A stretch of DNA of 64,000 nucleotides from an uncultured Clostridia bacterium (GCA_944391965.1 CALXVH010000005.1:4131-68130); one strand, 5' to 3'. Positions 894-53,528 are shown, numbered from the stretch's first letter. Notes: a model not told the origin generated them from the letters alone. Made by a program: numbers and translations.

Positions 894-922
894 AGGGATT
901 TAGGGACGTTCCTTAAATCCCT
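894..922 (+). repeat. REP-like 29-bp palindromic repeat, copy 1
   Basis: AGGGATTTAGGGACGTTCCTTAAATCCCT, 6 nt after the upstream stop codon. Confidence 0.85.
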
Positions 923-931
923 TTTTAAAAC

Positions 932-960
932 AAAAAGTCGCTATTTAATAGCGACTTTTT
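932..960. terminator. Bidirectional intrinsic terminator
   Basis: AAAAAGTCGCTAT-TTA-ATAGCGACTTTTT between convergent genes. Confidence 0.8.
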
Positions 961-1006
961 CCATTACTATAACTCTATTTTCAAAATTGAAATTAAATTT
1001 CTAATA

Positions 1007-1948
1007 TTAATCTTCTAATAATTTTAACTCAACATTTGCAACTTTATATTTGTTTGTTGTTTCATCTAATTTAAATTCTATTAAAGTATCTTCTAATGAT
1101 TCTTTATTTTGTCTTAAATCTGTTGTAAAGTATAATTTTATTTTTGAAATTTCTAATCCTTTTGTTACAATTAATTTAAATGTTTCTGCAGCATGTTTTT
1201 CATCTTCACAAACAAATATTAATTGTGGCATAATTGGAAATCCAGAGTCTCCTGGTACAAAATTATCGTAAAAGTCTTGATATAATCTCATCTTTTCTGC
1301 TAATTTATTTTTCCAATCTTCTTCTCTTCTAACAACTTCAAATAAGAAAGAAATTGATTTATTATTTTTAGTTAATTTAACACTACCACCTGAAGCTTTA
1401 AAAGGTTTTGCTAATGTTTTAGCTGTAAGCTGTGGTTTTACAATATATGAATCAAAAGCTTTAACTTTTCTTAAATAAGCAAGTAATGTTTGATTTCCTG
1501 CTAATCTTTTCTTTATTAAAGCAACTGGTTTTACATTATCTGTTGGTTGCCATTTACACTCTATATCTCTTGAGTTTAACAAATATTTTCCCATTTTTTC
1601 TAGACAATATATTCTATATATTCCCTTTCCATCTTCTGAATGGAAATAATATCTTGTTAATATTTTTGTTTTTATTAATTGTTCTAATTTCTTATTTAAT
1701 TTATCTTGAGATTTTATTTCTATTCCCTTTATTTGTAATAATTGATAAATTTGTCTTGATGTAATAAATTCAAATTCATTTACTATCTCTAAAATTTGAA
1801 AATGAATATCTGTAATATGTCCTAAATTAATTTTATTTATGATTTGATTCATTGAAACGTAACCATCTTTATCGTCAAATACTTTAATCTCACCTTCTCT
1901 TATTGCAAATGGTGATACTTCTGCTTTGATTTGACTATCTTCTACCAT
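1007..1948 (-). CDS. Replication-relaxation (Replic_Relax)-like protein: winged helix plus PD-(D/E)XK-like domain
   Basis: N-terminal wHTH-like segment (ILEIVNEFEFITSRQI...KKLEQL) and C-terminal FLFEVVR...LIFVCED resembling this family; RBS AGGAGG. Confidence 0.5.
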   Translation of the reverse strand: MVEDSQIKAEVSPFAIREGEIKVFDDKDGYVSMNQIINKINLGHITDIHFQILEIVNEFEFITSRQIYQLLQIKGIEIKSQDKLNKKLEQLIKTKILTRYYFHSEDGKGIYRIYCLEKMGKYLLNSRDIECKWQPTDNVKPVALIKKRLAGNQTLLAYLRKVKAFDSYIVKPQLTAKTLAKPFKASGGSVKLTKNNKSISFLFEVVRREEDWKNKLAEKMRLYQDFYDNFVPGDSGFPIMPQLIFVCEDEKHAAETFKLIVTKGLEISKIKLYFTTDLRQNKESLEDTLIEFKLDETTNKYKVANVELKLLED

Positions 1949-1961
1949 CTTAAATTCCTCC

Positions 1962-2447
1962 TTAACATATTATTAGTTTAATTTTTTTCTTTTCCGGAAT
2001 AATTTTTTTAATAAAAACATCCACCTGTTTCCCATATTCTATTCCTTCTTGATATTCAGCCATCCCTACTAAATTTGGTTTTAGCTCTATAAAAATACCG
2101 TTTTTATGAGCTTCTGTATTTCTTATAATTCCTTTTACTTTTGTTCCTTCTTTAAATAATTTTGCATTTTCTTCCCATGTTCCTAATAATTCTTTATAAG
2201 TAAACATTATTCTGTTGTTTTCTTTATCTATGCTTTTTACTTTAACATTTACTTCTTGTCCTATAGAAAATCTATCAAATGGGCTTTTTATTCTTGCTAC
2301 AGACATATCTTCTATATGTAATAACCCTACTACCCCATTTTTTAGTTCTATAAAAGCTCCATATGGCTGAATACTTTTTACTTTTCCTTGTACTATCATG
2401 TCCTCTTTTAAAGAATCATCAAATGGAATATATTTTTTGTAGCTCAT
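1962..2447 (-). CDS. S1 RNA-binding domain protein (two S1-like repeats)
   Basis: GKVKSIQPYGAFIEL...GLLHIEDMS is an S1 signature. Confidence 0.85.
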   Translation of the reverse strand: MSYKKYIPFDDSLKEDMIVQGKVKSIQPYGAFIELKNGVVGLLHIEDMSVARIKSPFDRFSIGQEVNVKVKSIDKENNRIMFTYKELLGTWEENAKLFKEGTKVKGIIRNTEAHKNGIFIELKPNLVGMAEYQEGIEYGKQVDVFIKKIIPEKKKIKLIIC

Positions 2448-2515
2448 TCTTTTTTCTCCTTATCTTATGTATAATCTTATATTATTATATAGTTTTATTT
2501 TAATATAATCAATAT

Positions 2516-3244
2516 CTATTTTATTAATTCTTCTATTTCTTTATTTGTTAACATTCTATATTGTCCTAGTTTTAAATTTTTTACATTTATTTTTCCAATA
2601 GCTGCTCTATGTAGTGCAAGGACCGGTTTATTTATAGTTTTACACATTCTCCTAACCTGTCTATTTTTACCTTCATGAATTATTATTTGAAATCTAGAAA
2701 TATTTTTATTTTCATCAATTTTTAAAATTTTAGTTTTGGCAGGCTTTGTTATATAATCACCTATATCTACTCCTGCTTCTAGCTTTTGCATATCTTCTTT
2801 TGTTATTTTTCCTCTTACTGTAACATTGTATGTTTTTTCTACCTCATGACTTGGATGTGTAATTTTATTAACAAATTCGCCATCATTTGATAGTATAAGT
2901 GCTCCTGAAGTATACATATCTAAACGTCCAACTGGAACTATTCTTGTCTTTATATCTTTTAATAAATCCATAACTGTGTCTCTCTTAAATTGGTCTTTTA
3001 CGGTCGTTACATATCCAATTGGTTTATTTAATAAAATATAAATTTTTTCATCTTGTCTTTTTAAAATTTTACCATCTACTTCTACAAAATCTGCATATGG
3101 ATCTATTTTAGTTCCTAATGTTGTTATAGTTTTTTCATTTACTTTTACTCTTCCTTCTAATATTATTTCTTCGCATTTTCTTCTTGAAGCAATTCCATTA
3201 TCTGCTAAAAATTTTTGAAGTCTAACTTCATTTTTTTCTTCCAT
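2516..3244 (-). CDS. rluB: 23S rRNA pseudouridine synthase, RluB/RsuA family
   Basis: S4 domain RLQKFLA...SRRKCE; catalytic PVGRLD; EGKNRQVRRM. Confidence 0.9.
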   Translation of the reverse strand: MEEKNEVRLQKFLADNGIASRRKCEEIILEGRVKVNEKTITTLGTKIDPYADFVEVDGKILKRQDEKIYILLNKPIGYVTTVKDQFKRDTVMDLLKDIKTRIVPVGRLDMYTSGALILSNDGEFVNKITHPSHEVEKTYNVTVRGKITKEDMQKLEAGVDIGDYITKPAKTKILKIDENKNISRFQIIIHEGKNRQVRRMCKTINKPVLALHRAAIGKINVKNLKLGQYRMLTNKEIEELIK

Positions 3245-3473
3245 ATTTTTTCCCCTTTTTTTATGTATAATTTATTTTTTTATGCATATTATAATATTAT
3301 AAGGAAAGTTGCTTTGCCAATGTATAGATAGATTTTCAATCTATCACACAGACATAAGTAACTTATCCCTGTTATTCTAGAAAAAGTCTAACGATTTTTC
3401 CATCATAATAAGTTATGTTTTTAATTTTCTTTTTATTCTGTTTTTAATGGAATAAAAAGATTTATATAGATCT

Positions 3474-3496
3474 TCCAGTACTGTTCTAGTACTGGA
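3474..3496 (-). terminator. Intrinsic terminator after the RluA-family gene
   Basis: TCCAGTACT-GTTCT-AGTACTGGA hairpin. Confidence 0.65.
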
Positions 3497-3505
3497 TTTT
3501 TTATA

Positions 3506-4435
3506 TTATATATTTATTTCCCTTGGTTCTAACTTTTTTAAAACCTCTTTAAAATATTCTGGTAAAGGTGCTTCTACTTTCATTTTTTCGTTTGTTATTG
3601 GATGCACAAATTCTATACTTTTCGCATGTAACATCTGACCTTCTACATTAAATTCATTTTTTCCATTTGAATATACACTATCTCCAACAATTGGATATCC
3701 TATTGTAGATAAATGAACTCTAATTTGATGTGTTCTTCCTGTTTCAATATTAACTTTTAATAAGGTATAACCTTGGTATCTTTTTAAAACTTTAAAATGT
3801 GTTATAGCATTTTTTCCATTTTTATCTATATCCATTTTCTTTCTATCTTTTTTGCTTCTTCCTATTGGCATATCTATAGTTGCTTCATTATCTTTTACAA
3901 TTCCTTTAACCAACGCTATATATGTCTTTTTTACTTTATGATTCTTTATTTGCTCAGAAATATTCAAATGAGCCTTATCACATTTAGCTACAATTAATAC
4001 TCCAGAAGTATCTTTGTCTAATCTGTGTACAATTCCAGGTCTCTTTTCTCCACCTATTCCAGACAAAGAATCTTTACACCTATATACTAAAGCATTTACT
4101 AATGTTCCTGTATAATTTCCATTTGCAGGATGCACAACCATTCCCTTCGCTTTATTTATAACAATAATATACTCATCTTCATATAAAACATCTATATCTA
4201 TGTTTTCAGGTATAATTTCTGTTTCTTTTACCTCTGGAATTTCTAAAGATACTATATCCTCTAATTTAACTTTATATGACGCTTTTACTTTTTTCCCATT
4301 TACAAGTATTCTTCCTTCTTCTAAAAGCTTTTGAGTTGCCATTCTTGTAATATTTTCATTCAAAATAGGTATTATTTTGTCAATTCTGCAATTAACATTC
4401 TCTTCTCCTATTTTATACTTCTCCACTTTTACCAT
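3506..4435 (-). CDS. rluD: RluA/RluD family pseudouridine synthase
   Basis: S4 domain; RPGIVHRLDKDTSG; ETGRTHQIRVH; GQMLHA. Confidence 0.9.
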   Translation of the reverse strand: MVKVEKYKIGEENVNCRIDKIIPILNENITRMATQKLLEEGRILVNGKKVKASYKVKLEDIVSLEIPEVKETEIIPENIDIDVLYEDEYIIVINKAKGMVVHPANGNYTGTLVNALVYRCKDSLSGIGGEKRPGIVHRLDKDTSGVLIVAKCDKAHLNISEQIKNHKVKKTYIALVKGIVKDNEATIDMPIGRSKKDRKKMDIDKNGKNAITHFKVLKRYQGYTLLKVNIETGRTHQIRVHLSTIGYPIVGDSVYSNGKNEFNVEGQMLHAKSIEFVHPITNEKMKVEAPLPEYFKEVLKKLEPREINI

Positions 4436-4985
4436 CCTTTTCTTTCTTTATTTTACTCATTCTTACATTATTAGCATACATAGCAAAGAACAGAGCTAAT
4501 AAAATCCATCCTAAAACTATAAAGATATCTGCAAAATTAAAATTAGGAAAATTTATAAGTTCTGATATATCTATAAAATCTACTACAAACCCTTTAAATA
4601 TTCTATCAATAAGATTACTAAATCCACCTGCAAGTACCATTGCTAAAGCAAATCCTGTCTTTTTATCTATTTGATTTGCTTGCATATTTATAAATTTTAT
4701 TATTATTCCTAAAACTATAATATTAGCTACTATAAATGAAAATGTACTATTTTGCCCTACACCAAAAGCTCCACCTCTATTTTGAACAGTATGAAGTTTT
4801 AATACTCCCGGAATTAAAGATATATCTTTATTAATAAAAATAAATTTTGTTATTTGGTCTATTAGTAACAATATAAGAACAACTATAAAAATCTTTTTTA
4901 GTACCTTTCTTTTTGCTAATTTCTCCTGTTCTTCTCTTTCTCTTACTTTTTGTGTTAAAGTTTTTGATTCTTGATTTTCTTCCAT
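4413..4985 (-). CDS. lspA: Lipoprotein signal peptidase II
   Basis: DQITK, NRGGAFG, NLIDR, VVDFI, FNFAD motifs; adjacent to rluD as in the conserved lspA-rluD pair. Confidence 0.92.
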   Translation of the reverse strand: MEENQESKTLTQKVREREEQEKLAKRKVLKKIFIVVLILLLIDQITKFIFINKDISLIPGVLKLHTVQNRGGAFGVGQNSTFSFIVANIIVLGIIIKFINMQANQIDKKTGFALAMVLAGGFSNLIDRIFKGFVVDFIDISELINFPNFNFADIFIVLGWILLALFFAMYANNVRMSKIKKEKDGKSGEV

Positions 4986-4995
4986 ATATCCTCCC

Positions 4996-6648
4996 TTATA
5001 CTACATCTCTTTCGTATATTACAAATCTATCATCTGAATATAATTCTTTATATTCATAGTTTCTTGATAAAAACATATTTAGTTTTGCATTTTTAAAACA
5101 TATTACATGAGTTATATCATATTCATCAAATTTATTTTCATAATATGTTCCAATATTTGATATATTCAGAAAATCATCAAATACTGTACAACCAGGATTA
5201 AATTCTGGAGTATATAAATCTGCTCTTGAATCCACAAATACAGGTATACCTCTATAAAGCATGTAACTACCATAATTATATTCGTTATAAATTCTCATAT
5301 TGCTAATATCTAAATTTTCTAAAATATAGTCACAGGCCTGTACTGGATATGATGATTCATCAACATATCTATCATCCAATTTTGGTTTATAAATATTCGT
5401 TCCTACAATTACAAATATGCACAATGTAATACAAAAACCATATAATCCTGTCATCTCTTTAAATAATTTTTTTACATCGTCCAAACATTTATATTTTTTG
5501 AAAAACGCTAAAATTAATTTACAATATATTGGCATTCCCATCAAAACTAACATAGAGATTTGTCTTCTTGACATCAAAGCTAAAATTACAAGCCCTCCAA
5601 ACATAAATAAATCTCTTAATTTTATTTTTATATCTGTTAGCATTAATAGAGCAATTACTACAATTAATAAACCTAATATATCTTTTTGATCTATTAAAGT
5701 TAGTGGTAGATGTTCATTAATGTTTTTTGTTGTATTACCTTGCATTGTATCTATTAAATATGTGTATGGAGTAGTTCCTAAAGGTGTACATAAGCCTAAT
5801 AGAGCTGCTATCAACATAACTAAAATTAAATATTTTACATTTTTATTTCTTTCAATTTTTATTTTATATGGATGTTTTCTGCTATTGGCTCTTTTTTGCT
5901 TTATATTTTGGCTTTGTTCTTCTACTTTTGCTATTTTATCTTCTATTCTACTTACTTTTTCTAAATTTTTAGAAAATACCTTTTTCTGAATTTTAAATAC
6001 TAATTTTTTTATTTTTAATACTAAGTCTAAATCTACAATTACGCAAATTAAATATTCTGCTATATATGGTAAGAATAATACAAAGAAAAATGGCCATACA
6101 GCTACATGTAAATTAGCCATTAACAGCGATATTAATAGCAATCCTATAGCATACCCTATTTTTCTATTTTTCATGAATCTTTCTATAAAGAATAATTCTA
6201 GAATAAATAAAATAAAAGTTACTAATTGTGCCCTTGCAGCTATATAAGACTTAATTAAATATATTGCCCCAATTGTTAATACAAATGGTACCACATGATT
6301 TTTACATATCTTTACATTCGTAAGATATAATATTATTCCTAATAAACAAGCAAAAACAAGTGTTGAAATATATATGCCTGTCCAACCACCCATATTATAT
6401 ATAAAATACATCATTACATCATATAACCAGTGTGGATACTCATAATTTAAATCCTCGTGCCACGAAAAATGATCTTTTCCATCTATACCATTTTCCATTA
6501 TTGATTCACCAATTTTTACTGTATAATATGTATCATTTTGCATTGTGACTGGTGATATAGCTATACAAAATAAAATTATACATATAATGGCTAATATATT
6601 AAATACTACTGTTTTTCTCTTTAATCCTTTTTTATTCTTGTTCTTCAT
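4996..6648 (-). CDS. Polytopic membrane protein, putative GT-C fold glycosyltransferase
   Basis: Many TM segments; NDTYY..KIGE..DHFSW..YPHWL loop; C-terminal YNEYNYGSYM..VFVDSRADLY. Confidence 0.6.
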   Translation of the reverse strand: MKNKNKKGLKRKTVVFNILAIICIILFCIAISPVTMQNDTYYTVKIGESIMENGIDGKDHFSWHEDLNYEYPHWLYDVMMYFIYNMGGWTGIYISTLVFACLLGIILYLTNVKICKNHVVPFVLTIGAIYLIKSYIAARAQLVTFILFILELFFIERFMKNRKIGYAIGLLLISLLMANLHVAVWPFFFVLFLPYIAEYLICVIVDLDLVLKIKKLVFKIQKKVFSKNLEKVSRIEDKIAKVEEQSQNIKQKRANSRKHPYKIKIERNKNVKYLILVMLIAALLGLCTPLGTTPYTYLIDTMQGNTTKNINEHLPLTLIDQKDILGLLIVVIALLMLTDIKIKLRDLFMFGGLVILALMSRRQISMLVLMGMPIYCKLILAFFKKYKCLDDVKKLFKEMTGLYGFCITLCIFVIVGTNIYKPKLDDRYVDESSYPVQACDYILENLDISNMRIYNEYNYGSYMLYRGIPVFVDSRADLYTPEFNPGCTVFDDFLNISNIGTYYENKFDEYDITHVICFKNAKLNMFLSRNYEYKELYSDDRFVIYERDVV

Positions 6649-6793
6649 CTTTACTTCATGTCTCCTTAATTTTAAGATATTGCCATTATAACAAAAAAAG
6701 ACTAAAAATCATAGTCTTTTTAGTCTTTATTTTATTGTTTTAAATTAGTTCATAATTTTAAAGCAAAAATCAAAATTTTGTCCTCAATTTAAT

Positions 6794-7459: not shown

Positions 7460-7606
7460 TTTTTTTCCTCCTATACTAATTATATTTTATCTATCGTTTC
7501 CCTTTTATGTCTCATCCTGTCTTAAACATCCCGATATACCTATTATACTACTTTTTTTTGGATTTGTCTACATAAAAAGTTATTTTTTGGATATTTATGT
7601 TTATTT

Positions 7607-7768
7607 CTATTGTTTTATACTATTTTCACTTATACTATTTACTACAATATTTGAAGTTGGAACAACATCTTTATATTCATATGTAGATGCCACAAAGTAT
7701 AGTACTACTATAGTAAATACCGTTACCACATATGCAATTATTTTTTCTTTATTTATTACATAAAACAT
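7607..7768 (-). CDS. 53-aa small membrane protein (absent from ORF track)
   Basis: MFYVINKEKIIAYVVTVFTIVVLYFVASTY...IKQ*, RBS AGGAGG, one TM segment. Confidence 0.7.
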   Translation of the reverse strand: MFYVINKEKIIAYVVTVFTIVVLYFVASTYEYKDVVPTSNIVVNSISENSIKQ

Positions 7769-7906
7769 AATTAATCCTCCTAGTGTTTTTATAATTTATA
7801 TGTTGAAAACCAAGCTTTTATACTTATAAACTAAGTGTATTATTCAACATTTTTCTTCAATTTACATAATATATATTATAAATCATTATAGAAAGGATGA
7901 ATAATT

Positions 7907-8446: not shown

Positions 8447-8476
8447 TTCTTAAGTAAAAAGTTAATGGGAATGTTA

Positions 8477-8614: not shown

Positions 8615-8639
8615 AAATATCCCTCTTTTCGATTATATT

Positions 8640-9029: not shown

Positions 9030-9037
9030 ATTTCACC

Positions 9038-9385: not shown

Positions 9386-9418
9386 AATATTATTTTTCCA
9401 AATGAAAAAAATAATATT

Positions 9419-10947: not shown

Positions 10948-10957
10948 CTATCTCACC

Positions 10958-13359: not shown

Positions 13360-14260
13360 ATGGTTGATTATTTGTATTTAAAAGATTCGCTTCATACATT
13401 TAGACAAAATTATAATTTTCTTAAAATTTTTTCTATCGGAAAAAGCGTTTTAAATAATGAAATATATTGTATAAAATTTGGTATAGGAAAAAAAGAAGTC
13501 TTGTATACTGCTGGAATCCATGCTAACGAATGGATAACATCTCTTCTTTTAATTAAATTTACTCATAATCTATGTAATGCATATGTTTCCAACACCCAAA
13601 TCTATGGGTATGATGCAAAATATTTATATGAAAATTTCTCTTTATACATAATTCCTATGATTAATCCTGATGGGATAAATTTAGTTAATAATTTCTACTC
13701 TACAGCTTCTGAAGTATATATCTCTGCACATAATATTGCAAAAAATTATCCTGATATTCCTTTTCCTTCTGGTTGGAAAGCTAATATTAATGGTGTGGAT
13801 TTAAACTCGCAATTTCCTGCTAATTGGGAACTAGGAAAAAAAATCAAATCTAATCTTGGATTTAATAAGCCTGCTCCAATAGATTTTGCAGGAGAATCAC
13901 CTCTCTCAGAGCCAGAATCACAATCCATGTATAATTTTACATTATTAAAAAACTTTTCTTTATGTTTGTGTTTTCATTCTCAAGGAGAAGTAATCTATTG
14001 GAAATACACCGATTTTTTACCGCCAAACTCTTTAGAACTTGCAAAAGAATTTGCTCATGTAAGTGGATATGAATTAGAAGACACTCCTTACACTTCCTCT
14101 TTTGGTGGTTTTAGAGATTGGTTTATAAAAAATTTTAACAAGCCTGGATTTACAATAGAGGTTCGGAAAAGGTGAAAATCCCTTACCTTTAGATCAATTT
14201 AGTAAAATATATCATGATAACTTAGGAATTCTAATAAAGGGATTAGGGGACGTTCCTTAA
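13360..14260 (+). pseudogene. M14 gamma-D-glutamyl-meso-DAP peptidase (YqgT-like), frameshifted at ~14164
   Basis: HANE, NPDG, GVDLN, FHSQG, TIEV. Removing C14164 gives GKGENPLPLDQF...GLGDVP*. Confidence 0.75.
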
Positions 14261-14266
14261 ATCCCG
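14238..14266 (+). repeat. REP-like repeat, copy 2
   Basis: AGGGATTAGGGGACGTTCCTTAAATCCCG. Confidence 0.85.
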
Positions 14267-14390
14267 ATTTATTGTATCAAAAAATAACCATTGAGTTTAT
14301 ATTTGAATTGATAAAATAAAAGTAGACTTTTGTGCTAACTTTTTATTGACAAGTTCAATTTATAGCTCTATGGTTATTTTTGATTAAACT

Positions 14391-15074
14391 TTAATTTTTC
14401 TTATTTCTAAAAGAATTATTTGAAATACGATATGAAATATAATACATTATTATAAGCAAACAAACTACTATTAATATTCCAAATCGTTGAAAAAATGAAT
14501 TAATAGCTTCTTCATTTATATTTATTCCTAAATTAGGTGCTAAATATGCAATTCCTAATGCTAATAATATTATTATAAAAAATAGTATAAACATCTGTAT
14601 TCTTCCTTTTTCTGCACCCCATTTATAAATACTTGGAATTTGTATTGCAAGTATTAAAGAAATTCCAAATATTCCTCCCATTGTTGTAAATATTAAGGAA
14701 TTGTAATCTATATTAATAATATTTTCTGTTCTTATATTATTTAAAATGTTAGTAAATATTGGAGTTATTATAAAACCTATTATTCCACCAATTAGTGCCA
14801 TAGAAATTACTAAAATATATTTTTCTAAGACAATTTCTTTTTTATTAACAGGTAAAGATAAAACATACTCGTCTGATTTTGCAAGTTCGTCATAACTAAA
14901 TGTTGATAAAGCTATCATTCCAAGCATAGTTGTCATGACTATTGGAATATATCTCCACATTTCTTCCCCTGCACTTCCTATTGCAAATACACATACAAGC
15001 ATTACTAATAGCGAAATCTTATAGCTACTTAAATTTAACAAATCCTTTTTTATTAAGCCACAAATTTCTTTCAC
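14391..15074 (-). CDS. ABC-2 transporter permease
   Basis: Six TM segments; FSYDE..SDEYVLSLPV.KKEIVLEKY. Confidence 0.85.
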   Translation of the reverse strand: MKEICGLIKKDLLNLSSYKISLLVMLVCVFAIGSAGEEMWRYIPIVMTTMLGMIALSTFSYDELAKSDEYVLSLPVNKKEIVLEKYILVISMALIGGIIGFIITPIFTNILNNIRTENIINIDYNSLIFTTMGGIFGISLILAIQIPSIYKWGAEKGRIQMFILFFIIILLALGIAYLAPNLGININEEAINSFFQRFGILIVVCLLIIMYYISYRISNNSFRNKKN

Positions 15075-15932
15075 TTATTTTTCCCCCTTTATATAAAATA
15101 ACATTATATCCTCGATTGATGCTTTATCTATCGTAGAAATTCCATATTTATTTTTTATTGTGTTTTTATTACTTACCAATACTTCATATTGATATTTTTC
15201 TTTTTTATAATACTCATAATCTTCTTTAGAGATTTTGCTAAAATCTTTTTCGTCACATTTAACAATACCATAATTTTCTAATATTTCTGATGTAGGTAGA
15301 TTAAGTGTTATTTCTCCATTTTTTATAAACATTATATAATCAGAAATATGTTCTAAATCTGTTGTTATATGTGTAGAAATAAGAATTGATCTTTTTTCAT
15401 CTTCTGCTATAAACTGTCTAAAAATATCTAAAATCTCATTTCTTACAACTGGATCTAAGCCACTGGTTGGCTCATCTAATATTAATATTTGAGGTTTGTG
15501 TGAGATTGCTGTAGCGATTTTTAATTTCATTTTCATTCCACTAGAAAAATCCTTAATCATTTTATTCTCCGGAAGCTTAAATAGTTTTATATAATTTTCG
15601 AAAAGCTCTTTATCCCAAGTATTATAAAAATTCTTCATTATTGAATTTATTTTTTTAGGAGTTAAATATTCTGATAAAAAACTGTCATCAAGAACTACAC
15701 CAAGTTTACTTTTTATCTCCTTTTCATTTTGCTTTATATCTTTTCCAAAAACTTGTATTTCACCATCTGACTTTATAATATTTAGGATTGACTTTATTGT
15801 TGTTGTTTTTCCTGCTCCATTTTCCCCTATTAATCCAACAATACTACCTTCTGGAATTTCAAAACTAATATTTTTTAATTCAAAGCCTTCATATTTCTTA
15901 TTTAAATTTTTAACTTTTATAGTTGCTTCCAT
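15075..15932 (-). CDS. ABC transporter ATP-binding protein
   Basis: GENGAGKTT, FSSGMKMK, ILDEPTSGLD, STH. Confidence 0.92.
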   Translation of the reverse strand: MEATIKVKNLNKKYEGFELKNISFEIPEGSIVGLIGENGAGKTTTIKSILNIIKSDGEIQVFGKDIKQNEKEIKSKLGVVLDDSFLSEYLTPKKINSIMKNFYNTWDKELFENYIKLFKLPENKMIKDFSSGMKMKLKIATAISHKPQILILDEPTSGLDPVVRNEILDIFRQFIAEDEKRSILISTHITTDLEHISDYIMFIKNGEITLNLPTSEILENYGIVKCDEKDFSKISKEDYEYYKKEKYQYEVLVSNKNTIKNKYGISTIDKASIEDIMLFYIKGEK

Positions 15933-16310
15933 TTATAAATCCTCCTCAAACATAATCTTTATTAAATTAACTACCTCTTCTTCGGTAATTCCATAAATTT
16001 TTGACAACTTAACAACTGTACTTATATTTTTTTCTATCTCTTTTAGTTTTTTTTCTCTTAATAGTTCCAAATTTTTAGGCAATACGTAACTGCCTTTACC
16101 TTGAACAGTTTTTATAAAACCCTCTGCTTCTAATTCATCATAAGCTTTTTTTACAGTTAAAAAACTTATTTTTAAATCATTTGCCAATGCTCTTACAGAA
16201 GGTAAATTCTCCTCTTCTTTTAATTCATTTGAATATATTGCTTGTTTAATTGCTTTTTTTATTTGTTCATAAATGGGTTCGCTACTACTATTACTAATAA
16301 TAATATTCAT
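15933..16310 (-). CDS. GntR (YtrA subfamily) regulator
   Basis: PIYEQI, LPSVRALA, TVKKAYDELE, GKGSYV. Confidence 0.92.
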   Translation of the reverse strand: MNIIISNSSSEPIYEQIKKAIKQAIYSNELKEEENLPSVRALANDLKISFLTVKKAYDELEAEGFIKTVQGKGSYVLPKNLELLREKKLKEIEKNISTVVKLSKIYGITEEEVVNLIKIMFEEDL

Positions 16311-16327
16311 TTTCTCCTCCTTTTCGA

Positions 16328-16368
16328 ACTGTTATATTTAATATATAACAGTATATAACAGTTGTCAA
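16328..16368 (-). promoter_or_regulatory. SigA promoter with overlapping probable GntR operator repeats
   Basis: TTGACA (16368-16363), 17 nt, TATATT; inverted repeat ACTGTTATAT-N5-ATATAACAGT plus a second direct ATATAACAGT. Confidence 0.75.
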
Positions 16369-16461
16369 TATATTTTTTAATTTTTGAAATGCCATTGATA
16401 TTAATAGCAATAAAAAAAGCCTACCTTATCAAGAAATAAAGTAAGCTTTTTATTTTATAAT

Positions 16462-16530
16462 CGGGATTTAAAGAACGTCCCCAAATCCCTACTGGGAAAA
16501 AAAGAACGTCCCCAAATCCCTAAAATCCCT
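16462..16530 (-). repeat. REP-like repeat, tandem copies 3-4 plus a fragment
   Basis: CGGGATTTAAAGAACGTCCCCAAATCCCT and GGGAAAAAAAGAACGTCCCCAAATCCCT. Confidence 0.85.
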
Positions 16531-16531
16531 A

Positions 16532-17683
16532 TTATTCTTTTGAGAATAATATTTTCTCTGATTTATATTGTTTTATGATATATGTTAATACAATAGATAT
16601 ATATATAATTGTTGAGACTACCATTAAAGCTATATTTAACCAATCTACATTCCCTGCACTTGTATCTGTAAATACTACTGTATAATTTATAAATGGTATT
16701 ATAGAAAGTAGTGGTGTTCCTGTTACACCTATCATAAATGCAATCATTCCTGGAAATAGTGATATAAATGTTAATGGTGTTAATGCACTTTGTGCTTCTT
16801 TAAATGTTTTTGAACTACTTGCAATAGCAATACATAATCCACTTATAAAGAATGAATATGCAATTATAATTATTACTGATAACACTATACTTATTGGACT
16901 AAACATTATATTTAACCCTTCATATATTGAAAATGCATTTTGTGCAATCGCAACAGATATGATTGCTAAAATTAAACTTATAATTCCTGTAAGAATTGAG
17001 GCGATTGTTACTGCTAAAAATTTTCCAACTATTATATCTCTACTTTTTATTGGAAATGTAAGTAATGTTTCTAATGTACCTCTCTCCCTTTCTCCTGCTG
17101 TTGTATCTGTTGCAGGATATGTTGCAGATACAGTTATTGCCATTATTATAAATACAAATGCATAATTTCTTATATAACTTACAAACATATTCTCTTCTTC
17201 TGTTATATTTTCTTCTACAGTTATAATATTTAGTACATCATTTGGATTTACGTTATTTTCTTGTAAATATCCACTTTGTAAATATTCTTTATATACATTA
17301 AAATAAGATTCCATTAAAGTTTTTGCATATGTGGTTACCTCTGAATCATTACCATTTATTATATATTTATTACCCTCTTTAGTTATGTACAAATCTATCT
17401 CATCATTTTCATATTTGTTTTTTAATTCATCAGTATTACCTTCGATAACTTCAATATCTAATTCTTTAGCAATATTTTTTTCCTCCTCGCTAAGTTCATA
17501 TGCAAAACCTATTTTATTATATTCTTCTATATCTTTGTTGGCCTGTACATCGAATAATGCAGACATTCCTAAAACTATTAAAGGTACAAATATAGGTATT
17601 ACTAACATCATAGATAATGACTTTTTATCTCTAAACATTTCTCTTAGTTCTTTTTTTAGGATATTCCATAAATTATTCTTCAT
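16532..17683 (-). CDS. NatB-like ABC transporter permease
   Basis: ILKKELREMFRDK; AGERERGTLETLLTFP; GKFL. Confidence 0.85.
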   Translation of the reverse strand: MKNNLWNILKKELREMFRDKKSLSMMLVIPIFVPLIVLGMSALFDVQANKDIEEYNKIGFAYELSEEEKNIAKELDIEVIEGNTDELKNKYENDEIDLYITKEGNKYIINGNDSEVTTYAKTLMESYFNVYKEYLQSGYLQENNVNPNDVLNIITVEENITEEENMFVSYIRNYAFVFIIMAITVSATYPATDTTAGERERGTLETLLTFPIKSRDIIVGKFLAVTIASILTGIISLILAIISVAIAQNAFSIYEGLNIMFSPISIVLSVIIIIAYSFFISGLCIAIASSSKTFKEAQSALTPLTFISLFPGMIAFMIGVTGTPLLSIIPFINYTVVFTDTSAGNVDWLNIALMVVSTIIYISIVLTYIIKQYKSEKILFSKE

Positions 17684-18431
17684 CAGAACCACCTCCAATC
17701 ATTGTAAAAAACGCATCTCTCAAATTAGTGGTTCCTGTTTCTTCTTTGATTTGTTTTGGTGTTCCTTGTTTTATTACAATACCTTTATTTATCATTATTA
17801 CTCTATCACAAATATTTTCTGCTTCTTCCATATAATGAGTTGAATACAATATGGTTTTTCCTTTAGCTTTTTCTTGTTTCATAAAGTCTAATATAATTTG
17901 GCTAGATATTATATCAAGCCCTGTTGTAGCTTCATCTAATATATAATATTTTGGATTATGCACTAAACATCTTGCAATATTTACTTTTTGTGTTTGCCCT
18001 GTTGACAAATTTCCTATCTTATTGTACAAAAAGTTTTCCATCTTTAAAATTTTTGTAATCTCTTGTATCCTTTTTTCTGCCTCTTCTTTTTGAACTCCAT
18101 ATATGTCACTACACATCTTTAACAACTCATATGCTGATAATGTATCATATAATTTTGTATTTCCTGATAAATATGCAATATTTTGCTTTATTTCTATTTC
18201 ATTATTCTTATAATTTAAATTATCAAATTTAATAATACCTTCTGTTGGTTCTAAAATTCCTGCAATCATTCGAAGTAATGTTGTTTTTCCAGCACCATTT
18301 GGTCCTAAAATTCCAATAATTTCGCCATCATTTGCTTCAAATGTTATTCCATTATCTGCATAAAATTCTTTTTTGATTTTCTTATTTTCATATCTTATAA
18401 ATTTCTTTTTTAAATTCTCAACCTTAATCAT
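17673..18431 (-). CDS. NatA-like ABC transporter ATP-binding protein
   Basis: GPNGAGKTT, LSTGQTQKV, ILDEATTGLD, STHYMEE. Confidence 0.9.
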   Translation of the reverse strand: MIKVENLKKKFIRYENKKIKKEFYADNGITFEANDGEIIGILGPNGAGKTTLLRMIAGILEPTEGIIKFDNLNYKNNEIEIKQNIAYLSGNTKLYDTLSAYELLKMCSDIYGVQKEEAEKRIQEITKILKMENFLYNKIGNLSTGQTQKVNIARCLVHNPKYYILDEATTGLDIISSQIILDFMKQEKAKGKTILYSTHYMEEAENICDRVIMINKGIVIKQGTPKQIKEETGTTNLRDAFFTMIGGGSDEE

Positions 18432-34809: not shown

Positions 34810-34863
34810 AGGGATTTAAGGAACGTCCCCAAATCCCTAACAAGGAATGTCCTCAAAATCCCT
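34810..34863 (-). repeat. REP-like repeat, copy 5 plus partial copy 6
   Basis: AGGGATTTAAGGAACGTCCCCAAATCCCT then AAGGAATGTCCTCAAAATCCCT. Confidence 0.85.
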
Positions 34864-34869: not shown

Positions 34870-36363
34870 CTATTTTCCTATATCTAGATCAAAATAGAAT
34901 TCTACTCCAGTATCTTTATTTTCTACACCAAAATCATTATTGTAATTATTCATTATTGCTTTTACTAAAGCTAGTCCTATACCTGTACCGCCATTGGCTC
35001 TATTTCTTGAAGAATCCACTTTATAAAAACGTCTCCATATTCTTTGTAAATTTTCTTCTTCGATATTATCACCGGTATTAAATACATATACTCTAACTTT
35101 ATTAGTCTTTTTCCTCATTTCTACTTTTATTTTTATATATTTTTCATTGAATACTTCTTTTGCGTGTTTTATAGCATTTGTAAAATAATTTGTTACAACT
35201 TGTTCAATATAGAATTCATCTGCATATACTATAACTTCTTCTGGCATATCCATCCTAACTTCAATATTATTTTCCTCAAGCATAACTTTAGATTTTCTAA
35301 TAACTTCTTGTATTAACTCTATAACATTAAAATTAGCATTTTGAAATTCTCTTTTTCCATATTCCAATTTCATAAGTTCTAATAATTGTTTTACTAATTT
35401 ATCCATCTTATTAGCTTCATCAAGTATTACATCTGCATAAAATTGTCTATTTTCTTCATCTGTATTAACATTTTCTACTAATCCTTCTGCATATCCTTGA
35501 ATTAAAGCTATTGGTGTTTTAAGTTCATGAGAAACATCTGATATAAATTGAGTTCTCATTTCTTCTATTTTAGATTTCTCCTCTATATCTTTTTCTAGCT
35601 CAACATTAGAATTTCGTAATTGTTGTATTGTTGCCTCTAGCTTGTCTGACATGATATTAATACTTCTCCCTAAGGCATTTATTTCATCATCAACATCTTT
35701 TGGATGGAATTTTTTACTAAAATCAAGTCTTGCCATTTTTTCTGCAATTTCATTTAATTCTTGAATAGGCTCTGTAAACCTCTTAGAAATAAAAGTTATC
35801 AAAATAGCTGCAATTATTAATGTTATCCCACCAATCAAGTATAAAAATGTGTTAGAAATTTTAACACTTTCCTGAATTGAAGATATTGGCATTCTTATAT
35901 ACAAATTGTAGTTATTATCTAAAGAACCTGACAATAATATATATGTAATATTATCTGATGGGTCTTTAACTTTCTTTATATTAACATTTTTATTAGCATA
36001 AATTATATTTCTGTTAGTGTCACTTCTTAATGCATTCATTTCATTTATTGTTTGAATGAAATTTTCATTAGATGTATATAAATTTATACCGTCTTGTGTT
36101 TCTAGTATAATATCATAATTACTTCTTGCAGCATAATTAGATAATATATTAGTTATTACTTTTTCTGATTGATTTGTATTATATGCTTTATTTACTTCAT
36201 CAAATATATCTACAAGAGCTCCTTGTTTTGTGTATAAATAAAAAGATTCTAATACTATATTATTTAACACGATTAAAAACAAGATTATTACTACAACTGA
36301 TATTGCAAGTGTTATAAATAATTTAAAACGTATGGAATTGTATTTTTTGTTTATTTTCTTCAC
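34870..36363 (-). CDS. HAMP-domain sensor histidine kinase
   Basis: SHELKTP, NYFTNAIKH, GGTGIGLA; two TM segments. Confidence 0.93.
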   Translation of the reverse strand: MKKINKKYNSIRFKLFITLAISVVVIILFLIVLNNIVLESFYLYTKQGALVDIFDEVNKAYNTNQSEKVITNILSNYAARSNYDIILETQDGINLYTSNENFIQTINEMNALRSDTNRNIIYANKNVNIKKVKDPSDNITYILLSGSLDNNYNLYIRMPISSIQESVKISNTFLYLIGGITLIIAAILITFISKRFTEPIQELNEIAEKMARLDFSKKFHPKDVDDEINALGRSINIMSDKLEATIQQLRNSNVELEKDIEEKSKIEEMRTQFISDVSHELKTPIALIQGYAEGLVENVNTDEENRQFYADVILDEANKMDKLVKQLLELMKLEYGKREFQNANFNVIELIQEVIRKSKVMLEENNIEVRMDMPEEVIVYADEFYIEQVVTNYFTNAIKHAKEVFNEKYIKIKVEMRKKTNKVRVYVFNTGDNIEEENLQRIWRRFYKVDSSRNRANGGTGIGLALVKAIMNNYNNDFGVENKDTGVEFYFDLDIGK

Positions 36364-51115: not shown

Positions 51116-51146
51116 ATGCCTATCATTAAGATTTAGGAGGTTTATT

Positions 51147-52913
51147 ATGGAAAAGTACAGAACACACACATGTGGAGACATCACTTTAGAAGATGTTGGA
51201 AAAAAAGTTAAAATTGCAGGATTTGTGCAAACAATTCGTGATTTAGGAGGTCTTGTATTCTTAGATATTCGTGATATGTATGGAATTACACAAGTTGTAA
51301 CTTCTGCTGAATCTAATATTGTAGATTTTGCATCACATATCCCTATCGAATCTTCTGTATCTGTGGAAGGTGTAGTTAGAAAAAGAAGTGAAGACACAAT
51401 AAACGAAAAAATTAAAACAGGTCTTGTAGAAATTTATATTGATGACATTCAAATTTTAGGAAAAAGAACTGCAGATTTACCATTTGAGGTAAATACAGAC
51501 CAAGAAGTTAGAGAAGATTTAAGATTAAAATATCGTTATTTAGATTTAAGAAATGATAAATTAAAATCAAATATTATTTTACGTAGTAAAGTTATCCAAT
51601 TTTTGAGAGAAGAAATGATAAAACAAGGATTTTTAGAGGTTCAAACACCAATACTTACAAGTTCTTCTCCAGAAGGTGCACGTGATTATTTAGTACCAAG
51701 TAGATTACATGAAGGAAGATTTTATGCTCTTCCACAAGCACCACAACAATTTAAACAATTATTAATGGTTTCTGGTTTTGATAAATATTTCCAAATCGCA
51801 CCTTGTTTTAGAGATGAAGATGCAAGAGCTGACCGTGCTCCTGGTGAATTTTATCAACTAGATATGGAAATGAGCTATGCGACCCAAGAAGATGTTTTTT
51901 CTGTTATTGAACCAGTAATATATAATACCTTTACAAAATTTTCTGATAAGAAAGTAGCAGAATATCCTTTCCCAAGAATAACATATAAAGAAGCTATGCT
52001 TAAATATGGTTCTGATAAACCAGATTTAAGAAACCCATTAGTAATAGTTGATGTTACAGATATTTTTGAAGATGAAAGTGTAACATTAAATGCTTTTAAA
52101 GGAAAATTAGTTAGAACAATAGCTGCACATGATGTAGCAGATCAACCAAGAAGCTTTTTTGAAGGAATGACAGATTATGCAATGAAAGAATGTAAAGCTA
52201 AAGGTCTTGCTTGGCTTCGTGTATTAGAAGATGGTACATTCCAAGGACCTATTGCTAAATTTATACCAGATAATGCAAGAGAAGAAATGTTAAAAAGAAC
52301 AGATTCAAAACCTGGTGATTGCCTATTCTTTATTGCAGAAACTCCAAAAATTGTTAATACTTTATCTGGTGAAATTAGAGCAGAGCTTGGAAAACGTTTA
52401 GGTTTAATAGATGAAAATATTTTCAAATTCTGTTGGATTGTTGATTTTCCAATGTATGAATTAGATGAACGTGGAAATATTACATTTAGTCATAACCCAT
52501 TTTCCATGCCACAAGGTGGATTAGAAGCTTTAAATACTCAAGATCCATTAGATGTAGTTGCATACCAATATGATATTGTTTGTAATGGTATAGAACTTTC
52601 TTCTGGAGCAGTTAGAAATCATGATATTGATATTATGCTTAAAGCTTTTGAAATTGCTGGATATACTAAAGACCAAGTACAGGAAAGATTTGGTGCTTTA
52701 TATACTGCATTCCAATATGGTGCTCCCCCACATGCTGGTGTAGCTCCTGGAATTGATAGAATGATTATGCTTCTTACAGGTGCAGAAAATATTCGTGAAG
52801 TTATAGCTTTCCCATTAAATAGTAAAGCTCAAGATTTAATGATGGGTGCTCCTGGTTATGTTTCAAGAGACCAATTGAGAGATATTCATATTAGAATAGA
52901 AAAAAGTAAATAA
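51147..52913 (+). CDS. aspS: Aspartyl-tRNA synthetase
   Basis: RTHTCG, EGARDYLVP, LPQAPQQFKQLLM, CFRDED, PPHAG. Confidence 0.97.
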   Translation: MEKYRTHTCGDITLEDVGKKVKIAGFVQTIRDLGGLVFLDIRDMYGITQVVTSAESNIVDFASHIPIESSVSVEGVVRKRSEDTINEKIKTGLVEIYIDDIQILGKRTADLPFEVNTDQEVREDLRLKYRYLDLRNDKLKSNIILRSKVIQFLREEMIKQGFLEVQTPILTSSSPEGARDYLVPSRLHEGRFYALPQAPQQFKQLLMVSGFDKYFQIAPCFRDEDARADRAPGEFYQLDMEMSYATQEDVFSVIEPVIYNTFTKFSDKKVAEYPFPRITYKEAMLKYGSDKPDLRNPLVIVDVTDIFEDESVTLNAFKGKLVRTIAAHDVADQPRSFFEGMTDYAMKECKAKGLAWLRVLEDGTFQGPIAKFIPDNAREEMLKRTDSKPGDCLFFIAETPKIVNTLSGEIRAELGKRLGLIDENIFKFCWIVDFPMYELDERGNITFSHNPFSMPQGGLEALNTQDPLDVVAYQYDIVCNGIELSSGAVRNHDIDIMLKAFEIAGYTKDQVQERFGALYTAFQYGAPPHAGVAPGIDRMIMLLTGAENIREVIAFPLNSKAQDLMMGAPGYVSRDQLRDIHIRIEKSK

Positions 52914-53093
52914 TTTTTATTAATCCACCATCGAAAAATATAAATTCGCATGGTGGCTATTTTTTGCTTTTTTATGTTAATCATGGTATAATGCTTTTGT
53001 CATATATAGGTATAACTAGCAAATACCTCTAAAATGTAACTATTGTATTTTGGAGGGGCTAGCCTCCAAAAGATTCTAAAAAGGAGGCATATA

Positions 53094-53429
53094 TTGATAG
53101 AATTAAATTTAAGAGAAAAATGGGTCGATCAGATGTACGGAGGCAACCTTACAACATGGTGCATATGGATAGTACATGCAATTGAAGCAATCCGTTCACC
53201 TGATGAAAAGGAAATAGAAATAAACTCTTTTTCCCCACCAGCTGATATAAATGGCAATGAACTACGGAAACCTCATCCAGAATTAGGCTTTACATCAGTT
53301 CATCTGTATTATACTCACCTTCCAGAACTTGATAAATTTCTTATAAATACCTTAAAAGGTATTTTAGAAAGAAATAAAATTCTTTTATGTGAGTCCACAA
53401 ATCGTTCAATTACAATAAGGATATATTGA
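53094..53429 (+). CDS. Hypothetical protein (TTG start)
   Basis: RBS AAGGAGG before TTG 53094; followed by a terminator. Confidence 0.6.
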   Translation: MIELNLREKWVDQMYGGNLTTWCIWIVHAIEAIRSPDEKEIEINSFSPPADINGNELRKPHPELGFTSVHLYYTHLPELDKFLINTLKGILERNKILLCESTNRSITIRIY

Positions 53430-53451
53430 CCCTAGTTTCTCTAATAACACA

Positions 53452-53484
53452 CAAAGCCTAGCAATGTTGAATTGCTAGGCTTTT
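53452..53484. terminator. Bidirectional intrinsic terminator
   Basis: AAAGCCTAGCAAT-GTTGA-ATTGCTAGGCTTT. Confidence 0.75.
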
Positions 53485-53499
53485 TACTTTTGTTTTGAT

Positions 53500-53528
53500 A
53501 GGGATTTAAGGAATGTCCCCTTTTCCCT
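53500..53528 (-). repeat. REP-like repeat, copy 10
   Basis: AGGGATTTAAGGAATGTCCCCTTTTCCCT downstream of adhE. Confidence 0.8.

Follow-up and report, generated by a model that had tools for sequence, protein, structure and literature searches.

The short palindrome dispersed through this clostridial genome is probably a selfish, REP-type repeat accompanied by its own RAYT, a reading that as a whole covers both its placement after genes and its bias towards the sense orientation. The host belongs to a genus of uncultured gut Clostridia whose relatives are labelled 'Clostridium sp. CAG:354', and its 1.5-Mb genome (27% GC) contains about 150 copies of the hairpin. A whole-genome nhmmer search recovers 151 copies scoring at least 15, of which 145 are extragenic. 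A preliminary description of the DNA had suggested a RAYT/IS200-type mobilised element, and that suggestion can be narrowed to a TIRYT-like REP/RAYT system on the strength of a repeat-flanked gene in five species and of co-occurrence across the genus.

Form and location of the repeat

The family consensus is aatAGGGATTTGGGGACGTTCCTTAAATCCCtatttt, and the correct unit is gapless (GGGATTTGGGGACGTTCCTTAAATCCC); the 31-letter consensus proposed earlier, read with N at both dashes, matches nothing at up to 3 mismatches. The unit is a 27-nt hairpin (fold z-score -5.7) and has no match in Rfam. Its invariant portion comprises the loop and upper stem, GGGGACGTTCC. Column counts give a-a-T-A/C for the 5′ flank and T/G-A-T-T-T for the 3′ flank; no GTAG tag stands beside the stem in this flank consensus, and CGTC occurs only on the opposite strand, inside the loop. 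The right arm exists in two forms, the second of which breaks the hairpin stem, and species may carry different forms at the same site. A T-rich tail is equally frequent on antisense copies, which indicates that it is part of the element and not selected site by site.

Copies are denser in convergent gaps (2.0 per kb) than in divergent gaps (0.4 per kb), although 11 clusters are sited in the latter, and many lie within 15 nt of a stop codon. Single units make up 108 of the 129 clusters genome-wide. Convergent inverted pairs, the REPIN-type doublets, account for eight, a frequency at odds with an inverted doublet as the mobile unit; the other multi-copy clusters are mainly direct arrays with truncated units. 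These 22-nt half units pile up head to tail and solely on the 5′ side, 27 of 40 immediately preceding, at 18-24 nt, a full copy that faces the same way. They are more degenerate than the terminal full copy, as would fit relics.

The window, a 64-kb stretch of this genome, contains seven occurrences of GGRACRTTC where 0.51 are expected, a number reached in 0 of 100 shuffles. All ten copies listed in the preliminary description are present, each within 1 nt of its original position, and an eleventh, degenerate copy can be added. The copies and their neighbouring features are as follows.

895..921, + strand: full copy (GGGATTTAGGGACGTTCCTTAAATCCC) with a TTTTT tail, 7 nt past the stop of a + strand gene whose end is at 887; the hairpin GTCGCTAT..ATAGCGAC lies downstream
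14239..14265, + strand: full copy in a convergent gap, downstream of a + strand gene (13360-14175)
16463..16489, - strand: full copy with right arm TTAAATCCC; of the two tandem copies behind the ABC permease gene it is the farther one
16494..16520, - strand: second-form copy with right arm TTTTTTTCCC, 11 nt from the stop at 16532
16532-17698, - strand: ABC permease gene preceding the tandem pair
34811..34837, - strand: full consensus copy with TATTTTTTT tail, after the histidine kinase gene
34836..34862, - strand: truncated 5′ half unit (GGGATTTTGAGGACATTCCTT) without a right arm, between the kinase stop and the full copy
34870-36363, - strand: histidine kinase gene, stop codon at 34870-34872
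46522-46746, + strand: 74-aa ORF, nearly invariant in seven species
46752..46778, + strand: second-form copy, 5 nt past the stop of the 74-aa ORF
46785..46811, + strand: second tandem copy, also second form, with the conserved terminator hairpin GCGATAAC..GTTATCGC and its T-run on the 3′ side
46868..46894, - strand: the degenerate eleventh copy (GTGAAAAGGGGACGGTGCTTGTTTCCC), whose 5′ TAG is the gatB stop codon
50865..50891, + strand: diverged copy (GGGATTTGAGGACATTCCTAGAATCCC) between divergent gatC (-) and aspS (+)
53501..53527, - strand: diverged copy with left arm GGGAAAA, 18 nt past the adhE stop
53546-56143, - strand: adhE

By our own ORF calls, a stop codon is found within about 20 nt at five of the seven loci, one fewer than the six first reported; at 14239 the distance to the called stop is 62 nt. 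Co-orientation with the nearest gene, claimed for all seven, holds at the six loci that follow the 3′ end of a gene. The copy at 50865 is not 3′-adjacent: it stands between divergent genes, in the upstream region of aspS and in sense with it. At 46752, co-orientation depends on the 74-aa ORF, which is judged to be a real gene because of its near-invariance.

Orthologous sites record both persistence and turnover. Copies persist vertically across species, and species differ in the presence of a copy, in unit number and in right-arm form; the comparisons revealed no clean insertion bounded by defined ends or a target duplication. At 14239, relatives carry up to two additional 5′ half units. At 895, the repeat is found in five species and missing from 12, nine of which have an ordinary terminator hairpin in its place; the alignment indicates that the repeat replaced half of the ancestral terminator hairpin.

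The transposase and its distribution

The window itself encodes no transposase, as first described, but the genome does carry one. The search for a RAYT/TnpA(Y1) gene flanked by the motif, which had been proposed as a check, found one on contig C3, where the single PF01797 profile match of the genome lies (C3:77031-77816). This single-copy Y1/HUH tyrosine transposase gene encodes 260 aa with the HUH motif NHVHLLI and the tyrosine motif YIHENP; H61, H63, Y121, N125 and P126 are invariant in 42 homologues. NCBIfam REP_Tyr_transpos (NF047646) matches it far better than IS200 (E = 5.9e-16), with a score of 58.7 bits that is below the curated cut-off of 80. The AlphaFold model (pLDDT 83) has as its top PDB match 4er8_A, the E. 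coli RAYT bound to REP (E = 4.5e-7). The gene is bracketed by inverted copies, the 5′ copy being sense and the 3′ copy inverted, an arrangement common to five species (this genome, G012, G020, G003 and G005). One further species, G018, has a flanking copy on one side only, and no flanking copy with this core was found at the transposase in G009 and G024.

Fifteen of 25 genomes of the genus carry the repeat, compared with none of 16 from other genera. RAYT orthologues (at least 55% identity) occur in seven of ten repeat-rich genomes of the genus compared with one of 15 repeat-poor ones (Fisher p = 0.0017); no RAYT was found in two repeat-rich genomes, G006 and G023, and two of the orthologues contain an in-frame stop. 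Among the sampled genera, repeat and enzyme are thus limited to this genus, and they are co-distributed inside it.

Residues 194-259 are confidently modelled as a helical C-terminal domain. Homologues at 38% identity carry Bac_DnaA_C (PF08299) or HTH domains, as do enzymes of TnpA-Y1 subclass 2.1, in which the C-terminal HTH-type domain is Bac_DnaA_C, HTH_23 or HTH_28 (PMC6006769). Together with the placement of half units beside full copies, these features are what one would expect if the 20-23-nt head-to-tail half units, about two helical turns apart, were double-stranded docking sites for a DNA-binding protein, possibly the transposase C-terminal domain, and the arrays were binding platforms instead of hairpins. 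We consider this quite unlikely: most loci have a single unit, the half units are degenerate in the manner of relics, and Pfam yields no HTH at E < 0.01 in the transposase, the best C-terminal match being a wHTH hint at E = 0.04.

Orientation and its possible origins

The preliminary description held the repeat to be strictly co-oriented with transcription. That rule fails genome-wide, where about 70% of copies are sense and 30% antisense: 3′-adjacent copies number 91 sense and 40 antisense (p = 1e-5), and the first copy after the stop in co-directional gaps is sense in 52 cases and antisense in 20, counts that, like all orientation and terminator figures here, use our own crude predictors of genes and terminators. 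Between the stop and a separately predicted terminator, 34 copies are sense and one is antisense. Co-orientation is therefore a real, strong bias that is near-absolute in the stop-to-terminator interval, not a strict genome-wide rule, and the overall sense share arises because copies mostly sit in that interval.

The bias tracks the gene and its transcription. Replication could in principle set orientation through IS200/IS605-like insertion into the lagging-strand template and look transcriptional, given that the leading strand carries most genes; the correlation of GC skew with gene-strand majority is indeed r = 0.97, with most genes co-oriented with replication, and copies agree with the leading strand 78:53. 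We regard this as very improbable. After lagging-strand genes, 18 copies run with the gene and against replication and five the other way (p = 0.01), a result that contradicts lagging-strand targeting of the IS200/IS605 kind; after leading-strand genes they follow the gene 73:35, and once gene direction is known replication direction adds nothing.

Predicted folds distinguish the two strands as RNA. The sense RNA folds at -20.3 kcal/mol and the antisense at -15.0, whereas the DNA strands are nearly equal (-10.7 and -9.9). The advantage of about 5 kcal/mol is due to two G·U pairs, with which the sense RNA is predicted to form an unbroken 16-bp stem followed by UAUUUU. A simple hairpin-plus-T-run terminator test is passed by 41 of 80 sense copies (51%) and by nine of 48 antisense copies (19%). 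Sense copies are also closer to the consensus (median score 35.8 versus 28.8, p = 0.002) and fold better (p = 0.001), and the stem-breaking second form is found in 20% of them compared with 38% of antisense copies. This better conservation could reflect younger age rather than selection.

The terminator-like hairpin and U-rich tail, the G·U pairs that favour sense RNA and the one copy that replaced an ancestral terminator would all suit elements whose main role is that of RNA signals for the host (intrinsic terminators or stabilisers of 3′ ends), multiplied by duplication and linked to the transposase only incidentally. Such an origin is nonetheless highly improbable for 150 near-identical copies in one genus that co-occur with a RAYT bracketed in five species and match nothing in Rfam; the antisense copies and the clusters in divergent gaps also argue against it, as do the ordinary terminators that remain beside copies. 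A separate terminator is predicted in 40% of REP-bearing and 44% of REP-free 3′ regions, rates from which the sense repeat does not appear to take the place of an ordinary terminator.

Another explanation dispenses with any RNA role and places the bias at insertion. The transposase would place the active strand into single-stranded DNA on the 5′ flank of a hairpin already there, for instance a terminator, or into the non-template strand that transcription opens up towards the ends of genes, so that polarity is fixed at birth. Strand-specific action on single-stranded DNA is a known property of Y1 transposases (PMC6006769, PMC8266576). A terminator-type hairpin that is not itself a REP stands within 150 nt of 87 copies, and in 68 of these cases it is on the element's own 3′ side (p = 1e-7), mostly 10-22 nt away, and the same rule applies to 15 of 20 gene-antisense copies. 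Past the terminator in co-directional gaps, copies point back towards it 7:1. Isolated copies have stronger hairpins on the 3′ than on the 5′ side in all context classes except that of the two intragenic sense copies. One intergenic gap holds three placements in different species, all in an orientation that agrees with the hairpin-plus-T-run next to them, not with the genes on either side. Much of the 3′-side rule, however, comes from geometry, since a sense copy placed right against a stop codon leaves room for a terminator only on its downstream side. The sense excess persists (39:15) among copies that have no other terminator close by, the hairpin is symmetric on both strands so that a further reason is needed for 70:30, and insertion polarity alone predicts neither the better preservation of sense copies nor the excess of broken stems among antisense ones. 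We consider insertion alone the less probable account, though polar insertion beside terminator hairpins does explain much of the same pattern as an RNA role.

In the preferred REP/RAYT reading, which takes E. coli TnpA-REP and IS608 as its models, the enzyme would recognise a hairpin that one strand of the element forms as single-stranded DNA, probably through the invariant GGGGACG in loop and upper stem and the G·T mismatch, and would then cut and rejoin DNA so that copies spread and are remodelled. Copies build up just past stop codons, 5′ of the ordinary terminator hairpin and with the gene's polarity, a placement from which they are expected to be transcribed as sense 3′-UTR hairpins. An RNA-level role is partly favoured, as suggested by the tracking of transcription, the 34:1 ratio, the predicted stability of the sense hairpin and the preservation of sense copies. 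The view we favour, at a little under an even chance, is that sense copies are kept because they work as auxiliary terminators or 3′-end protective hairpins, or at least are harmless as such, and that antisense copies within transcripts are removed or decay.

Relation to known mobile systems

The closest parallel is the REPtron, in which REP/BIME elements are paired with a RAYT (TnpA-REP) in E. coli, Pseudomonas and Stenotrophomonas (Nunvar, 2010; Bertels and Rainey, 2011, PMC3116915; Messing, 2012, PMC3479197; Ton-Hoang, 2012; Corneloup, 2021, PMC8266576). Both have short, imperfect, extragenic palindromes at high copy number, concentrated behind genes and in convergent gaps, a single-copy Y1/HUH transposase between inverted copies, a G·T stem irregularity that marks one strand, and vertical persistence at orthologous sites. 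Unlike REPtrons, the clostridial system has no GTAG guide tetranucleotide by the stem, its invariant part being the loop and upper stem; inverted doublets are rare, the host is a low-GC Firmicute and its enzyme exceeds theirs by about 100 aa. Truncated units often form head-to-tail arrays here, whereas head-to-tail dimers are reportedly rare in REP families (PMC3733652).

A second parallel is the TIRYT, or TIRtron (Di Nocera et al., 2013, PMC3733652), which has been equated with TnpA-Y1 subclass 2.1 (Quentin et al., 2018, PMC6006769). As there, the protein is long and RAYT-like with a modelled C-terminal helical extension, its 38%-identity relatives bear Bac_DnaA_C, and the flanking repeats, which in TIRtrons too may be members of a dispersed family, include GGGGACG, a near match to the reported TIR consensus GGGG[AT][CG]A[CG] (PMC6006769); the GGGGACGT of the copies agrees with it at seven of eight positions. 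The likeness is one of features, and the clostridial C-terminus matches no HTH profile. Genes of subclass 2.1 reportedly have no REP-like hairpins nearby (PMC6006769), whereas the flanks here form hairpins that are part of a 150-copy family.

Two further comparisons concern gene 3′ ends. The clostridial copies share their location in 3′ regions, many close to the stop, with E. coli REPs, and a stronger hairpin in sense RNA, here as a predicted fold. E. coli REPs are reported to act as mRNA 3′ stabilisers, transcription attenuators and translation modulators (Newbury, 1987; Espeli, 2001; Liang, Rudd and Deutscher, 2015). They usually alternate in orientation, and the sense bias seen here is not a feature of those descriptions. 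Class C group II introns insert just past intrinsic terminator hairpins, on the 3′ side. They too tie the position and polarity of a mobile element to a terminator-type hairpin, but are a wholly different element and mechanism, and the clostridial copies lie 5′ of the terminator.

Tentatively, and with the odds against the combination as a whole, the family may represent the REP partner reportedly missing from TnpA-Y1 subclass 2.1, with recognition of the GGGGACG loop in place of a GTAG foot, polar head-to-tail stacks of 22-nt half units and transcription-coupled polarity. That polarity would stem from non-template-strand insertion, from insertion at the 5′ flank of terminators or from the survival of sense copies only within transcripts. 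If true, gene 3′ ends in a Gram-positive genus would be steering a single-strand DNA transposase system, or the system would have been domesticated to serve them.

Repeat family in the window and across the genome

All ten repeat copies of the preliminary description were recovered, each to within 1 nt. The window (C5:4131-68130) belongs to a genome of 45 contigs, 1.50 Mb and 27% GC, and holds the asymmetric core GGRACRTTC 7 times against 0.51 expected, a number reached by 0 of 100 shuffles. The gapped consensus first proposed for the repeat, typed with N at its two dashes, finds no match; its gap characters are superfluous and the unit is ungapped, GGGATTTGGGGACGTTCCTTAAATCCC. Rfam and tRNA scans across the window returned no matches. 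Features referred to here are the following.

Features in the window
46868-46894, minus strand: degenerate extra copy, absent from the earlier list; its TAG serves as the stop codon of gatB
46522-46746, plus strand: 74-aa ORF, the gene nearest copy 46752; hydrophobic, no family match
14176-14237: 60-nt spacer from the called TGA stop of 13360-14175 to the repeat
14391-16310: three-gene cassette (GntR regulator, ABC ATPase, ABC-2 permease)

Six of the seven loci had been placed near a stop codon. With our own ORF calls the number within 20 nt of one is five rather than six: copy 14239 has its called stop 62 nt away and copy 50865 sits between the divergent gatC and aspS. The 74-aa ORF is almost invariant in seven species, exceeds its flanks in conservation and has a ribosome-binding site. 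It is accepted as a gene because of this near-invariance and the ribosome-binding site, and probably encodes a small membrane protein. Spacer 14176-14237 is near-identical in seven species, and such unusual conservation may mean that the gene truly ends here or that the stretch contains some small feature.

A family profile built from 88 anchored copies detects 151 copies in the genome at a score of at least 15, with the consensus aatA/C-GGGATTT-G-GGGACGTTCC-T-TAAATCCC-T/G-ATTTT. There is essentially no variation in the core GGGAC.TTC or in the pair G17·T27. A second right-arm form, TTTTTTCCC, which disrupts three stem pairs, occurs in about one copy in four. Almost all copies (145 of 151) are extragenic. 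Clusters occur in 28% of convergent gaps (2.0 per kb), 6% of co-directional gaps (0.7 per kb) and 8% of divergent gaps (0.4 per kb). Copies reading in the same direction as the adjoining gene (sense copies) pack near stop codons, mostly 0-22 nt away, and for seven of them the stop codon is the TAG of the element itself.

Half units, which comprise the left arm and core without the right arm, have degenerated further than the terminal full copy; 27 of 40 lie directly 5′ of a full copy, 18-24 nt away in the same orientation, and none of the 40 lies 3′ of one. Inverted doublets of the REPIN type are rare (8 of 129 clusters). A T-rich tail, T-A-T-T-T-T, is found on the 3′ side only, with no upstream mirror. 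Site-specific selection is ruled out as its source, since its T content within 10 nt is equal in sense and antisense copies (4.87 versus 4.85); the tail thus belongs to the element.

The transposase and known REP systems

The preliminary description guessed at a mobile element and proposed a search for a REP-associated tyrosine transposase (RAYT) gene flanked by the motif. Both proved well founded: the family is real, and such a gene lies on contig C3 with inverted copies on both sides. A whole-genome search with the Pfam Y1_Tnp profile gave this one match.

Features on contig C3
77031-77816, minus strand: 260-aa transposase; HUH motif NHVHLLI, class-2 tyrosine motif YIHENP
76647-76981, minus strand: 107-aa ORF directly downstream, starting just past the 3′ repeat; only a weak PadR-like winged-helix hint (E = 0.007)

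The enzyme matches the NCBIfam family 'REP-associated tyrosine transposase' at E = 5.9e-16 and 58.7 bits, under the curated cut-off of 80, and its IS200 match is far worse (E = 0.0075). A PDB sequence search returned nothing useful and only fold comparison was informative. The top PDB match of a structural model based on 42 homologues (pLDDT 83) is 4er8_A (E = 4.5e-7), the RAYT of E. coli in complex with a REP hairpin, followed by the IS608 and ISDra2 transposases. The model shows a confident helical domain at residues 194-259, for which Pfam gives no significant match; in homologues sharing about 38% identity, Bac_DnaA_C or other HTH domains are present. The flanking copies lie about 170 nt upstream in gene sense and 15-50 nt downstream in inverted orientation. 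The same layout is found in four relatives (G012, G020, G003, G005), and a fifth, G018, has a flanking copy on one side only. In G009 and G024, no copies with the core of this family flank the transposase gene.

Repeat and enzyme appear to work like a REPtron (PMC3116915, PMC3479197, PMC8266576), with which they share the repeat itself, the enzyme's motifs and fold, the bracketing of its gene and the co-distribution of repeat and enzyme. The GTAG tag and the REPIN doublet as unit, however, are REPtron features that this family does not share. Enzyme length and relatives offer a lead to TnpA-Y1 subclass 2.1, or TIRYTs (PMC3733652; PMC6006769), whose flanking repeats have the consensus GGGG[AT][CG]A[CG] (PMC6006769), close to GGGGACGT in the present repeats. 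This long, C-terminally extended subclass was reported without REP-like hairpins nearby (PMC6006769), whereas here a long enzyme accompanies a clear hairpin family. The REP survey in PMC3733652 names no Firmicutes, and Firmicutes REPs are unmentioned in both it and PMC6006769. The family is a variant form of a known kind of element.

Distribution and turnover

An exact 27-mer search across 185,579 species genomes found at least 79 stretches; among the matches listed, all come from a few 'Clostridium sp. CAG:354'-like gut MAGs. Among 41 relatives, the motif is present in 15 of 25 same-genus genomes and 0 of 16 that represent other genera in the order, with 1 to 145 copies per motif-bearing genome. 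Enzyme orthologues (at least 55% identity) occur in 7 of 10 genomes with 10 or more copies versus 1 of the 15 that have fewer (Fisher p = 0.0017). No orthologue was found in G006 (53 copies) or G023 (102 copies). Two orthologues, L083 (G020, 88% identical) and L084 (G003, 83%), contain one in-frame TAA each; their genomes hold about 140 copies.

Five close species carry the repeat at site 895. Of the 12 other members of the genus, 9 have a conventional terminator hairpin there (GGAAATTC...GAATTTCC followed by a T-run) that overlaps with the stop codon; species with the repeat lack the 3′ half of this hairpin, and the repeat occupies its place. At an ftsH-like gene on contig C21, the one REP-free species has the terminator after the stop, and the others have stop, repeat, then terminator. 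At sites 14239, 16463, 34811 and 46752 the position of the repeat is shared by six or seven species and the unit number varies, and at conserved sites the right arm alternates between TTAAATCCC and TTTTTTCCC in a pattern that does not track relatedness. The varying unit number and arm switches are taken as evidence that rewriting of copies in place is under way. Twelve further loci, searched with a chimeric query, yielded REP-free orthologues and no sharp-ended insertion or target duplication.

The cassette at 14391-16310 lies between a plus-strand repeat and minus-strand repeats (window 14239-16520). In G012, which lacks it, the plus-strand repeat directly adjoins the minus-strand ones; the difference would be either a repeat-bounded deletion or an insertion. 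BLAST break points at ~39084, ~42883 and ~46125 were rejected as sites of REP presence or absence: they are unrelated indels, two of them another repeat family. This second dispersed element (~60-130 nt) occurs in some relatives at sites matching ~42883 and ~46125 (L136-L139, L141, L142), is absent there in the genome under study, and consists of two hairpins, ATTGCxAAGCAAT and GTGGCxAAGCCAC, then a T-run. Synteny with relatives breaks within about 20 nt of a repeat at C41:~15580 and C3:~48157, the flanks lying on different contigs in G023 and 4.5 kb apart in G012; the repeats may indicate break points, whether of rearrangement or of assembly. A ~140-nt stretch beside a repeat (C15:33583-33727) recurs on several relatives' contigs, often at contig ends, and is probably another repeat or a mobile-element end.

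Orientation bias and its possible causes

The repeats had been described as strictly co-oriented with transcription. Genome-wide the bias is about 70% sense and not strict, and in 3′ UTRs it is near-absolute.

Orientation of copies relative to the adjoining gene (sense; antisense; p)
Every copy in co-directional gaps: 56; 32; 0.014
First copy past the stop in co-directional gaps: 52; 20; 2e-4
Convergent gaps, relative to nearer gene: 35; 8; no p given
All 3′-adjacent copies: 91; 40; 1e-5

Replication direction was assigned from local GC skew and gene-strand majority (r = 0.97). Copies follow lagging-strand genes 18:5 and leading-strand genes 73:35, which rules out a replication-strand explanation and makes the bias transcriptional, in contrast to the replicative orientation of IS200/IS605. 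Ordinary terminators were predicted by a simple hairpin-plus-T-run rule. In 3′ regions with such a terminator, sense copies lie before rather than after it 34:2, and antisense copies after rather than before it 33:1. The presumably transcribed interval from stop to terminator thus holds 34 sense copies versus 1 antisense, and for this interval the initial impression of co-orientation is right.

Selection on the transcribed hairpin, as auxiliary terminator, as 3′ protection or by mere tolerance, is tentatively proposed as the cause of the sense bias, with a likelihood a little short of even. The sense transcript is predicted to fold into an unbroken 16-bp stem (-20.3 kcal/mol) and the antisense transcript, interrupted by a 2x2 internal loop of A·C, to reach -15.0 kcal/mol; DNA folds of the two strands are near-equal (-10.7 vs -9.9). 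Sense copies deviate less from the consensus (median score 35.8 versus 28.8, p = 0.002) and have the better folds (p = 0.001), and the stem-breaking second form makes up 38% of antisense versus 20% of sense copies. Among copies without another terminator nearby, the bias persists at 39 sense versus 15 antisense. All of this argues for an RNA-level cause. A plain equation of repeat with terminator fares worse, as only 51% of sense copies pass a simple terminator test. Substitution for a terminator is likewise unsupported: a separate one is predicted with 40% of sense repeats versus 44% where there is no repeat.

The stem base (columns 8/36) shows no compensatory covariation: A-T, C-T, A-G and C-G are all present, with no excess of C-G. 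Leaving aside the two fixed G·T positions, wobble variants of the sense-strand type outnumber antisense-type ones 42 to 13. Most of this excess comes from one column (18/26), whose variant may be a subfamily marker, and it is treated as weak evidence.

Polarity might instead be set at insertion, by mechanism, which we consider somewhat less likely. A non-REP terminator-type hairpin lies on the element's own 3′ side in 68 cases against 19, usually 10-22 nt away, and the excess includes copies antisense to genes (15:5), although it is partly geometric because sense copies abut the stop codon. In one gap, three placements in different species share an orientation that matches the neighbouring hairpin-plus-T-run, not the flanking genes. 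The likelihood left by selection on the transcribed hairpin and insertion polarity falls to shared or other causes.

To our knowledge, nearly everything established about REP/RAYT systems comes from Proteobacteria. This genus offers a long, C-terminally extended enzyme, a clear hairpin family and many species to compare, with orientation data that cleanly part replication from transcription and a near-absolute sense rule within 3′ UTRs. Operon ends are marked by repeat copies, which also create stop codons and coincide with breaks in synteny; the copies are therefore relevant to annotators of gut metagenome genomes, who should know them. An old question becomes testable in this genus: whether REPs are kept for a useful RNA, or merely where they landed.
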